Source: Escherichia coli (GTDB taxonomy: Bacteria; Pseudomonadota; Gammaproteobacteria; Enterobacterales; Enterobacteriaceae). Taken from it: DNA of 64,000 nucleotides. Position 1 is the stretch's first letter. The number at the start of each line of letters is the position of its first letter. The notes under the pieces are model-generated. The model saw only the letters and a program-made list of their open reading frames with translations. It did no database searches and was not told the origin of the DNA. Both the position numbers and the translations under genes were made by a program. The stretch lies in assembly GCF_003334385.1 (NCBI RefSeq), contig NZ_QOWN01000015.1. The stretch is one strand, 5' to 3'. Shown piece by piece: positions 33,440 through 55,574 of the stretch.

Positions 33440-33763
33440 ATGCAATTTTCTACAACCCCAACTCTGGAAGGCCAGACCATCGTTGAATATTGCGGTGTGG
33501 TGACCGGCGAAGCGATTTTAGGTGCCAATATTTTCCGTGATTTCTTTGCCGGTATCCGCGATATCGTTGGCGGACGTTCCGGTGCGTATGAAAAAGAACT
33601 GCGTAAAGCACGGGAGATCGCCTTTGAGGAATTAGGCTCCCAGGCGCGGGCGCTGGGGGCCGATGCCGTCGTCGGTATTGATATCGACTACGAAACGGTC
33701 GGGCAAAACGGCAGTATGCTGATGGTTAGCGTCAGCGGTACGGCGGTGAAAACGCGTCGATGA
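33440..33763 (+). CDS. ybjQ: UPF0145 family protein YbjQ
   Basis: ORF 107 aa; ATGA overlap with amiD. Confidence 0.88.
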
Positions 33764-51759: not shown

Positions 51760-52080
51760 ATGGGTAAAACGAACGACTGGCTGGACTTTGATCAACTGGC
51801 GGAAGAAAAAGTTCGCGACGCGCTAAAACCGCCATCTATGTATAAAGTGATATTAGTCAATGATGATTACACTCCGATGGAGTTTGTTATTGACGTGTTA
51901 CAAAAATTCTTTTCTTATGATGTAGAACGTGCAACGCAATTGATGCTCGCTGTTCACTACCAGGGGAAGGCCATTTGCGGAGTCTTTACCGCCGAGGTTG
52001 CAGAAACCAAAGTGGCGATGGTGAACAAGTACGCGAGGGAGAATGAGCATCCATTGCTGTGTACGCTAGAAAAAGCCTGA
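51760..52080 (+). CDS. clpS: ClpA adaptor protein ClpS
   Basis: ORF 106 aa. Confidence 0.95.
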
Positions 52081-52110
52081 ATGCAGGCATAAAAATTGGG
52101 GGAGGTGCCT

Positions 52111-54387
52111 ATGCTCAATCAAGAACTGGAACTCAGTTTAAATATGGCTTTCGCCAGAGCGCGCGAGCACCGTCATGAGTTTATGACCGTCGAGCACTTG
52201 TTACTGGCGCTGCTCAGTAACCCATCTGCCCGGGAGGCGCTGGAAGCGTGTTCTGTGGATTTGGTTGCGCTCCGTCAGGAACTGGAAGCCTTTATTGAAC
52301 AAACCACACCCGTTCTGCCTGCCAGTGAAGAGGAGCGCGACACACAGCCGACGCTGAGTTTTCAGCGTGTACTGCAACGTGCGGTCTTCCATGTCCAGTC
52401 CTCCGGTCGCAATGAGGTTACCGGTGCAAACGTTCTGGTCGCTATCTTTAGCGAACAGGAGTCGCAGGCGGCATATCTGTTGCGTAAACATGAAGTCAGC
52501 CGTCTCGATGTGGTGAACTTTATCTCTCATGGCACGCGTAAAGACGAGCCGACACAGTCTTCTGATCCTGGCAGCCAGCCAAACAGCGAAGAACAAGCTG
52601 GTGGGGAGGAACGTATGGAGAATTTCACGACGAACCTGAATCAGCTTGCGCGCGTGGGCGGAATCGACCCACTGATTGGTCGTGAGAAGGAGCTGGAGCG
52701 TGCTATTCAGGTTCTCTGCCGTCGCCGTAAAAACAACCCGCTGCTGGTGGGGGAATCTGGTGTCGGTAAAACCGCGATTGCGGAAGGTCTTGCCTGGCGA
52801 ATTGTTCAGGGCGATGTGCCGGAAGTGATGGCTGACTGTACGATTTACTCTCTCGATATCGGTTCTCTGTTAGCGGGCACAAAATATCGCGGCGACTTTG
52901 AAAAACGTTTTAAAGCGTTGCTCAAGCAGCTGGAGCAGGACACTAACAGCATCCTGTTTATTGATGAGATCCACACCATTATCGGTGCGGGTGCAGCGTC
53001 TGGTGGTCAGGTCGATGCGGCTAACCTAATCAAACCGTTGCTCTCCAGCGGTAAAATTCGTGTAATTGGTTCGACAACCTATCAGGAGTTCAGCAACATT
53101 TTCGAGAAAGACCGTGCTCTGGCGCGTCGCTTCCAGAAAATTGATATTACTGAACCGTCGATCGAAGAAACTGTTCAAATCATCAATGGCCTGAAACCGA
53201 AGTATGAAGCGCACCACGACGTGCGTTATACCGCAAAAGCGGTGCGTGCGGCGGTAGAGCTGGCGGTGAAATACATTAACGATCGTCATCTGCCGGATAA
53301 AGCCATTGATGTTATCGACGAAGCGGGCGCTCGCGCACGCCTGATGCCGGTAAGCAAACGCAAGAAAACCGTTAATGTGGCGGATATTGAGTCCGTGGTG
53401 GCCCGTATTGCACGCATTCCAGAGAAGAGTGTTTCTCAGAGTGATCGTGATACCCTGAAAAACCTCGGCGATCGCTTGAAAATGCTGGTCTTCGGTCAGG
53501 ATAAAGCCATTGAGGCGCTGACTGAAGCCATTAAGATGGCGCGTGCAGGTTTAGGTCACGAACATAAACCGGTTGGTTCGTTCCTGTTTGCCGGCCCTAC
53601 CGGGGTCGGGAAAACAGAGGTGACGGTACAGCTTTCGAAAGCTTTGGGCATTGAGCTTCTGCGCTTTGATATGTCCGAGTATATGGAACGCCATACCGTC
53701 AGCCGTCTTATTGGTGCGCCTCCGGGATACGTTGGTTTTGATCAGGGCGGTTTGCTGACTGATGCGGTCATCAAGCATCCACATGCGGTGCTGCTGCTGG
53801 ACGAAATCGAGAAAGCGCACCCGGACGTGTTCAATATTCTGTTGCAGGTGATGGATAACGGTACGCTGACCGATAACAACGGACGCAAAGCAGACTTCCG
53901 TAACGTGGTGCTGGTGATGACCACCAACGCCGGGGTACGGGAAACTGAGCGCAAATCCATTGGTCTTATCCACCAGGATAACAGCACCGATGCGATGGAA
54001 GAGATCAAGAAGATCTTTACACCGGAATTCCGTAACCGTCTCGACAACATTATCTGGTTTGATCATCTGTCAACCGACGTGATCCATCAGGTGGTGGATA
54101 AATTCATCGTCGAGTTGCAGGTTCAGCTGGATCAGAAAGGTGTTTCTCTGGAAGTGAGCCAGGAAGCGCGTAACTGGCTGGCCGAGAAAGGTTACGACCG
54201 GGCAATGGGCGCTCGTCCGATGGCGCGTGTCATCCAGGACAACCTGAAAAAACCGCTCGCCAACGAACTGCTGTTTGGTTCGCTGGTGGACGGCGGTCAG
54301 GTCACCGTCGCGCTGGATAAAGAGAAAAATGAGCTGACTTACGGATTCCAGAGTGCACAAAAGCACAAGGCGGAAGCAGCGCATTAA
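52111..54387 (+). CDS. clpA: ATP-dependent Clp protease ATP-binding subunit ClpA
   Basis: ORF 52096..54387 trimmed to ATG 52111 (758 aa); two AAA+ modules with Walker A GESGVGKT and GPTGVGKT. Confidence 0.95.
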
Positions 54388-54412
54388 TCTGATTGTTAGG
54401 TAGGTTGGTCAA

Positions 54413-54450
54413 GTCCGTAATCTCGAAAGAGGTTACGGACTTTTTGTTTA
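54413..54450 (+). terminator. Rho-independent terminator of clpSA
   Basis: Stem GTCCGTAA/TTACGGAC followed by TTTTTGTTTA. Confidence 0.8.
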
Positions 54451-54599
54451 TGGGGTGGAGGAGGTTCAGACCCTTTTTTTAATGATGATGGTAAGTTGTT
54501 GATAATTAGTGCTGCGGGAAGGTAAGGATAAAAAAGGGTGCTGCAGGAGAATGGGATGGTTTTGCTTTATTAACAACGGGCTAAACGTGTAGTATTTGA

Positions 54600-54687
54600 G
54601 TTCACTGCCGTACAGGCAGCTTAGAAATTCACAGGTAACATACTCCACCCGCCCACCATGTTCACTGCCGTACAGACAGATAAAATG
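54600..54687 (+). CRISPR. Vestigial type I-F CRISPR array: 2 repeats, 1 spacer of 32 bp, no cas genes
   Basis: Repeat 1 GTTCACTGCCGTACAGGCAGCTTAGAAA (54600-54627) matches the I-F consensus; spacer 54628-54659; repeat 2 (54660-54687) identical in the first 16 nt then degenerate, as expected for a terminal repeat. Confidence 0.85.
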
Positions 54688-54688
54688 C

Positions 54689-54718
54689 GAAAAAAAAGCT
54701 CGCACTTTCGTACGAGCT
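54689..54718 (-). terminator. Rho-independent terminator of serW
   Basis: On minus strand stem AGCTCG/CGAGCT with 10-nt loop followed by TTTTTTTT; abuts the degenerate CRISPR repeat. Confidence 0.75.
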
Positions 54719-54730
54719 CTTCTTTAAATA

Positions 54731-54818
54731 TGGCGGTGAGGGGGGGATTCGAACCCCCGATACGTTGCCGTATACACACTTTCCAGGCGTGCTCCTTCAG
54801 CCACTCGGACACCTCACC
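54731..54818 (-). tRNA. serW: tRNA-Ser (anticodon GGA)
   Basis: Reverse complement reads GGTGAGGTGTCCGAGTGGCTGAAGGAGCACGCCTGGAAAGTG...GGTTCGAATCCCCCCCTCACCGCCA; long variable arm, encoded CCA. Confidence 0.95.
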
Positions 54819-55002
54819 AAATTGTTTTGCTACCAAACCTCATGGGTGGCAACGGGGCGCTACTATAGGGAGTTGGAGTAAAACGGTCAAGAAGAATTTT
54901 AATGATAATTATTGTTTGCTCATACTGTAAACAAGTTGTGCAGTATATCTACATCGAGACAAGTTACGGACTTATACTTCCAAAGTACTTCATACATATC
55001 AC

Positions 55003-55030
55003 AAAATAAAAAGGCCGGTTAAACCGACCT
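55003..55030 (-). terminator. Probable rho-independent terminator of infA
   Basis: On minus strand GGTCGG-TTTAA-CCGGCC hairpin (one G-U pair) followed by TTTTTATTTT. Confidence 0.5.
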
Positions 55031-55071
55031 TTTACTCGTTCTTTCTCTTCGCCCATCAGGCGGTAAAACAA

Positions 55072-55293
<222 letters not shown>

Positions 55294-55574
55294 ATCCTCT
55301 GGGGTATCACTACCGTAATTTGAACCGGCAAGATAATGCCGAAGTTCTGTAAATAAGTAAAGATTTGCGCGCTAAATCGCAACAAACAGGTTCGGCACAT
55401 TACTCCGAAAACACACGGCTAAGCCGCACCAAAAGCGCAACGTATAAGGGAGCGGTGAGATAAACGATGGGCGTTACCTGACGCGAAAAATTCCTTATCG
55501 GCAGCGGGGTAATGAGCGTAACCAACTCTGCGACCGCAATTATAACACTCTGGGGAGAAATGTGCCGAAAACAT

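Follow-up and report, generated by a model that had tools for sequence, protein, structure and literature searches.

The 64-kb stretch of Escherichia coli DNA analyzed here (the window) carries a short CRISPR array between clpA and infA. Upstream of the array lie clpS (51760-52080) and clpA (52096-54387, plus strand), the latter an ORF listed from a TTG start and matching the NCBIfam ClpA profile NF008263 with 1695.7 bits; because this profile starts at residue 6, the true start of clpA is probably a few codons downstream of the listed TTG. The gene is followed on the plus strand by an intrinsic terminator-like hairpin with a T-run (54411-54442; a 14-bp stem, then TTTGTTT) and by a CRISPR leader of 59.9% AT (54443-54599, plus strand), which is homologous to the CRISPR4.1 leader of strains carrying a type I-F system. 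Past the array, the terminator hairpin of serW (54690-54725, minus strand), with A/T runs on both sides, begins 2 nt after the second repeat and would probably end transcription of the array as well. It is followed by an intact serW encoding tRNA-Ser(GGA) (54731-54818, minus strand; predicted by ARAGORN and scoring 53.8 bits with the Rfam tRNA model), by a 108-bp segment assigned to neither strand (54900-55007), which has no counterpart in strain LF82, where a second leader and the CRISPR4.2 array occupy this place (1659 bp), and by infA (55072-55290, minus strand; TIGR00008, 130.2 bits), the core gene that flanks the locus downstream. The ORFs, the NCBIfam/TIGR profiles and ARAGORN thus bear out the flanks named in the original prediction, clpA upstream and serW and infA downstream.

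A scan of the leader for the sigma-70 consensus returned no match on the plus strand. Two promoter-like sites were observed on the minus strand upstream of serW, one at 54931-54902, the single such site of the AT-rich 108-bp segment, and the other at 54890-54862, which is likely the serW promoter. Sub-threshold Rfam matches to Plastid-psbl-rps4, sX4, MicC, Thr_leader and ar35 were rejected as noise, as they overlap the tRNA or the terminators.

The array consists, on the plus strand, of an exact type I-F repeat whose predicted 5-bp hairpin is intact (repeat 1, 54600-54627, GTTCACTGCCGTACAGGCAGCTTAGAAA), a 32-nt spacer directed against cas1f (54628-54659, TTCACAGGTAACATACTCCACCCGCCCACCAT) and a degenerate terminal repeat (repeat 2, 54660-54687, GTTCACTGCCGTACAGACAGATAAAATG) that is identical to the first at 22 of its 28 positions and differs at positions 17, 21, 23, 25, 27 and 28. 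The sequence of 54600-54687 reads exactly as it had been predicted, with the repeat once intact and once degenerate in its 3' half around a spacer of 32 bp. The assignment of this repeat to the type I-F consensus held as well: with the Rfam family CRISPR-DR4 (RF01317) repeat 1 scored 50.1 bits (E=2.7e-10) against a gathering threshold of 35, and it is identical to the repeats of the LF82 arrays. Repeat 2 scored 20 bits, under the same threshold; the repeat at the trailer end of an array is usually degenerate in its 3' part. In the window the 28-mer of repeat 1 is present in a single copy (none expected, based on 100 shuffles) and its 16-nt 5' core in exactly two copies, 60 bp apart; with up to three mismatches allowed, the only further match to the core was a chance one (13/16) at 33736. 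The element is, then, a pair of direct repeats with a 60-bp period and a unique 32-nt spacer, and the RefSeq annotation lists no feature at its position.

The two repeats differ in their predicted fold. A free energy of -8.6 kcal/mol was obtained for repeat 1 and of -1.4 kcal/mol for repeat 2, the latter no better than shuffled sequences, and this loss of the hairpin is explained by G17A, which turns the C9-G17 pair of the stem into C.A. Cas6f binds the repeat hairpin (PMC3902920), and since the only crRNA of the array takes its 3' hairpin from repeat 2, 3' maturation may be impaired. Judging from the predicted folds, the copy of the array in the window may be partly decayed via this substitution. 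G17A in the terminal repeat and a change at spacer position 6, discussed below, are two derived changes that the original prediction had not weighed.

Type I-F cas genes are missing from the surroundings of the array. No cas1f, cas2-3f, csy1-3 or cas6f lies next to it in the 64-kb window, and tblastn searches with the six I-F Cas proteins of LF82 against the whole window gave no match at E<=1e-3, which extends the earlier statement that no cas genes are located nearby. In E. coli strains possessing the system, the cas genes and arrays were expected in the clpA-infA interval, and this is where they were found in LF82 and ETEC-2264, in the order clpA - leader - CRISPR - cas1f-cas3f-csy1-csy2-csy3-cas6f - serW - leader - CRISPR - infA. 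This corresponds to the complete type I-F locus described for LF82, ED1a and UTI89 as CRISPR4.1 - cas1-cas2/3-csy1-4 - serW - CRISPR4.2 (Almendros et al., 2012; PMC3506596). The window and the LF82 locus have in common the leader, the repeat, the 60-bp period, the orientation and the flanking genes. Positions 54000-54627 of the window are collinear with the 3' end of LF82 clpA, the leader and the first repeat (97.5% identity), 54692-54899 with the serW terminator, serW and the region upstream of serW (95.7%), and 55008-55400 with infA. Between these blocks the two loci differ: the 64 bp of spacer and terminal repeat in the window correspond in position to 9130 bp of LF82 sequence containing an array and six cas genes, and an unrelated 108-bp segment corresponds to the second leader and the 23-repeat CRISPR4.2 of that strain.

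Over the 212 bp between the clpA stop and repeat 1, the window shows 94.3% identity with LF82 and 100% with ETEC-2264. Across strains, the identity of the leader ranges from 88.6 to 100% vs 96-99% for the 3' end of clpA, evidencing no unusual conservation. The leader of the I-F-positive ETEC-2264 (L002 8429-8640) is thus fully identical to that of the cas-less window (54388-54599), and the leaders of other cas-less strains differ by up to 11%; comparison of these sequences hints at a recombinational exchange of the cas module, a breakpoint of which would lie at the first repeat or past it. The terminal repeat of the window ends in ATAAAATG and those of the LF82 arrays in TATTCACA and TCTTCAAA. 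As this tail matches neither LF82 array, and as serW, which is situated between those arrays, has been kept, the orphan locus did not arise from an LF82-like one by simple deletion from repeat to repeat. An origin by recombination between CRISPR4.1 and CRISPR4.2 of such a locus was also considered and rejected, given that the serW-infA segment differs too. Strain A22 (L003 1501-2487) is otherwise I-F-positive and has a cas1f annotated as a frameshifted pseudogene, which suggests that the target of the orphan spacer, an adaptation gene, is decaying in this strain.

The target of the spacer is cas1f. In LF82, 30 of the 32 nt are matched on the antisense strand of this gene (L001 12001-12032), preceded by 5'-CC, the canonical PAM of type I-F systems, and with mismatches at positions 4 and 6; cas1f of A22 is matched at 30/32 as well, again with a CC PAM, and that of ETEC-2264, belonging to a second E. 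coli cas1f allele group (96.2% identical), at 29/32, with a CC PAM and mismatches at positions 4, 6 and 10. By our own estimate, a match with at most two mismatches would arise by chance in the ~17 kb searched with a probability of about 4e-12. A scan of one genome per GTDB species gave just two loci, namely a MAG contig that proved to be E. coli with the same orphan array, and cas1f of strain E69 (CP089930, L013 69-3409), which is matched at 31/32 with a CC PAM and a mismatch at position 6 only. It had been mentioned in the original prediction, as reported for E. coli orphan arrays, that the spacer retained at this locus matches a type I-F cas gene, with the reservation that the spacer of the window could not be confirmed as that one; the alignments to cas1f of LF82, ETEC-2264 and E69 settle this point.

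E69 represents a divergent Escherichia lineage. The 3' end of its clpA and its leader share only 88.4% identity with the window, and between its cas1f and the LF82 gene the identity is 91.9%; a 37-repeat array is present at the same locus, with cas1f adjoining. In the E69 gene the CC is followed by TTCACTGGTAACATACTCCACCCGCCCACCAT, a 32/32 match to the variant of the spacer found in O157:H7, which has T at position 6 (T6). Spacer position 4 corresponds to the third base of a Ser codon in cas1f, where the exchange AGC/AGT is synonymous, and its T variant is present in E69, so that the spacer can be regarded as a faithful copy of a natural cas1f allele; the change at position 6 would replace Ser by Cys in cas1f. 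On these sequences the simplest history would start with a spacer copied out of a cas1f like that of E69, in which position 6 mutated later, within the array. According to the seed rules of type I systems every sixth position is flipped out and unpaired, and the change at position 6 should for this reason be tolerated. Position 4, which lies in the seed, is mismatched to the cas1f alleles that RefSeq E. coli genomes contain, and this would favour priming over direct interference.

A protospacer outside the cas genes was sought among mobile elements and rejected. The search of PLSDB plasmids returned no full match to the spacer, only a partial one (22/25) in a Vitreoscilla cas1f, and the search of phage records no protospacer, only a 17-nt chance match in phage Lw1. 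Plasmids with a close cas1f were likewise absent from PLSDB, the best having 64.6% identity at the amino acid level (Photobacterium) and none being enterobacterial. Since neither a plasmid cas1f nor a phage protospacer was matched, a natural vehicle for a guard to act on is not evident, and the realistic route of entry for a type I-F system is the chromosomal DNA of other Escherichia and not a known plasmid. The LF82 arrays examined hold no copy of the spacer of the window within 6 mismatches. In the searches of E. coli genomes, a match to the spacer or array fell on a plasmid-classed record in one place; the clpA-serW intergenic query gave five plasmid places, one of which, in NZ_OZ547091.1, matches only the 40-bp segment of the serW terminator.

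The distribution of the array was determined in 5426 complete E. coli genomes. The array region was present in some form in 5424 of them and the exact 88-bp array in 1423 (26%), while the spacer was detected at >=95% identity in about 2300, in a search that also returned 30/32 matches annotated as cas1f. Two matches to the spacer were observed in at most 4 genomes. The cas1f gene was found in 241 genomes (~4%), and these show no overlap with the 546 genomes that carry the exact T6 variant of the spacer; because array and cas genes represent two alternatives at a single locus, their mutual exclusivity is partly structural and constitutes weak functional evidence. The B strain NEBExpress (L005) has the same repeat 1, spacer and repeat 2 as the window and K-12 derivatives have at least the same spacer, and the O157:H7-type allele combines the T6 spacer with a terminal repeat in which G17 is kept. 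The MAG contig JADFJT010000085.1 (L012 1260-1400) was binned as 'Proteobacteria bacterium' but belongs to E. coli, with 99.85% identity to the window; the homology stops at the 5' end of serW (window 54818), and only the sequence upstream of serW differs.

Eight other cas-less arrays (L004-L011) were compared with that of the window. All of their 7 distinct spacers match LF82 cas1f, cas3f or csy3 with 1-4 mismatches, the CC PAM being present at 6 of the 7 targets, and a terminal repeat tail ending in CAGATAAAATG is common to 8/8 sampled orphan arrays. Sister arrays with 2-4 spacers are entirely anti-cas, with the additions at the leader end (L004, L010), and such multi-spacer arrays fit primed adaptation in transient encounters with cas genes. 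A comparison of the clpA-infA interval across genomes had been proposed along with the original prediction, as had an alignment of the spacer with I-F cas genes, phages and plasmids; the former, in the shape of the block alignment with LF82, the counts in 5426 genomes and the eight sister arrays, supports an orphan anti-cas locus, and the latter yielded cas1f and no protospacer in PLSDB or among the phages.

Several particulars of the sister loci were also registered. A cas3f-targeting spacer, TCGACGGGGTGCGGTAAAACCTTTGCGAACGC, occupies the leader-proximal position in three of them (L004 821-968, L010 821-1088, and L011 821-908), followed by spacers that differ; in L010 (strain ST69) two copies of it stand in tandem. 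Its sharing suggests either repeated primed acquisition of a hot-spot spacer or recombination between arrays. In O157:H7 F7508 (L006 953-1553) the serW beside the array is truncated, no tRNA is annotated and a gene for a tyrosine integrase follows, suggesting an element integrated at serW. An 'RtT sRNA' element of about 136 bp separates the orphan array from serW in NEBExpress (L005 951-1086) and MS 69-1 (L007 1310-1446) and is absent from the window.

The locus has a published history. Touchon and Rocha (2010; PMC2886076) reported a short array between clpS and aat, beside tRNA-Ser, which they named CRISPR3 and 'anti-CRISPR'; matches of its spacers to Cas1, Cas3 and Csy2 of the Ypest (I-F) subtype were confined to genomes without those genes. 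They noted the conservation of the terminal repeat tail in cas-less strains and, with three arguments against simple loss, argued that the cas-less array is older than the extant cas genes. In later work the locus is referred to as CRISPR-III and its single cassette as CRISPR4.1-2 (Almendros et al., 2014, mBio; PMC3903273). Native orphan arrays are constitutively expressed, interfere with plasmids bearing I-F cas genes and prime the acquisition of more spacers, according to the summary given in PMC8616872 of Almendros et al. (2016, Nat Microbiol 1:16081). It is close to certain that the array of the window is this known orphan type I-F anti-cas array of the E. coli clpA-infA locus. The array is, in consequence, already published; what is mildly new concerns the allele level, namely that the commonest form carries G17A, which breaks the hairpin, and that cas1f of a divergent Escherichia contains an exact protospacer for the T6 variant.

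The identity of the element, the match of its spacer to cas1f with a PAM, its distribution and the anti-cas content of the sister arrays are probably explained, as a whole, by an orphan array that acts as a self-triggered guard and keeps its lineage free of type I-F systems. In such a mechanism the leader would drive transcription of the array, which alone, in a cell without cas genes, would have no effect. Upon entry of an I-F cas operon into the cell, the incoming Cas6f and Csy proteins would load the resident anti-cas1f crRNA and Cas2-3 would then attack the incoming cas1f, while imperfect matches would prime the uptake of additional anti-cas spacers, and the DNA that carries the cas genes would be lost. 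For the class as such a guard function has good support, and we infer transcription, crRNA processing and interference for the allele of the window. A guard of this kind would help to explain that type I-F systems are present in only about 4% of the complete E. coli genomes (241/5426).

The array could instead be the inert, decaying scar of a lineage that lost its I-F cas genes, in which case the present allele would do nothing; we consider this unlikely. The original prediction had seen in the locus the scar left after loss, or non-acquisition, of the cas module, and loss is indeed one of the two histories that have been published. A possible cause for it is offered by the view of Diez-Villasenor et al. 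(2010), as relayed in PMC2886076, that a cas-targeting spacer brings about autoimmunity and selects for deletion of the cas genes. This part of the prediction stands only halfway, since it is faced by the three arguments of Touchon and Rocha against a simple-loss history, by which the cas-less array predates the extant cas genes (PMC2886076). Decay would account for the two derived changes with respect to the T6/G17 allele, at spacer position 6 and in the hairpin of the terminal repeat, but the former sits at a non-pairing position and repeat 1 is perfect. The mismatch in the seed towards the cas1f alleles common in E. coli, the leader with no promoter consensus on its plus strand and with a divergence ordinary for intergenic DNA, and PLSDB without a close plasmid-borne cas1f to guard against are also in agreement with a scar. 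They have to be set against the maintenance of the array in about 2300 genomes, and of the region in some form in 5424/5426, and against the content of the orphan arrays: all of the sampled spacers are anti-cas, the LF82 arrays examined are without the spacer of the window (within 6 mismatches), and the extra anti-cas spacers at the leader end can have been added only if Cas1 and Cas2-3 acted on an array that was anti-cas by then. In addition, interference and priming have been reported for native orphan arrays, as summarized in PMC8616872.

Explanations that dispense with CRISPR function fare worse. That the element is part of the clpA/serW termination region or a small regulatory RNA, its likeness to CRISPR being incidental, is very improbable; the array ends only 2 nt from the serW terminator hairpin and weak Rfam sRNA matches exist on the minus strand (sX4, 27.6 bits vs a gathering threshold of 70, and MicC, 24.8 vs 90), but these scores, far under gathering, are driven by the tRNA and the terminator, the serW terminator functions without an adjoining array in I-F-positive strains, and spacers that vary between lineages and are always anti-cas are not predicted by a role of this sort. 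A chance repetition mistaken for a CRISPR, which two repeats only and the silence of the RefSeq annotation might have suggested, is refuted for practical purposes by the exact I-F repeat above the Rfam gathering threshold, with zero chance matches expected, by a 60-bp period as in genuine arrays, by the homologous leader and by the match to cas1f with its PAM.

Within the guard reading, it can be asked whether the allele of the window, with A at spacer position 6 and at position 17 of the terminal repeat, differs functionally from the ancestral-looking T6/G17 allele. Either G17A would have disabled the guard, leaving these lineages open to type I-F systems, or the crRNA would acquire its 3' end independently of a canonical Cas6f hairpin, with the serW terminator, which starts 2 nt further on, as one conceivable means. 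Such a difference is put forward tentatively, as a doubtful proposal; if true, a hairpin-independent 3' end would represent an unrecognized maturation route for a type I-F guide.

Compared with known systems, the closest parallels outside the chromosomal locus are the mini-arrays and solitary repeat units of phages and plasmids (PMC8616872), in which, as in the window, one spacer lies between a full and a degenerate repeat and Cas proteins are provided in trans. Those mini-arrays reside on mobile elements and target competitors via the Cas proteins of the host, whereas the array of the window is chromosomal and would turn the Cas proteins of an incoming system on the genes of that same system. 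With the orphan anti-cas CRISPR4 array (CRISPR4.1-2) the window shares the position from clpA/clpS to infA/aat by tRNA-Ser, the 28-nt repeat, the modified terminal repeat ending in ATAAAATG, the lack of I-F cas genes and a spacer against cas1 of the I-F (Ypest) subtype, with no substantive difference between them, and is a member of this class. Rather than new biology, the window offers a textbook example of a CRISPR array that persists in the absence of its cas genes and is directed against them.
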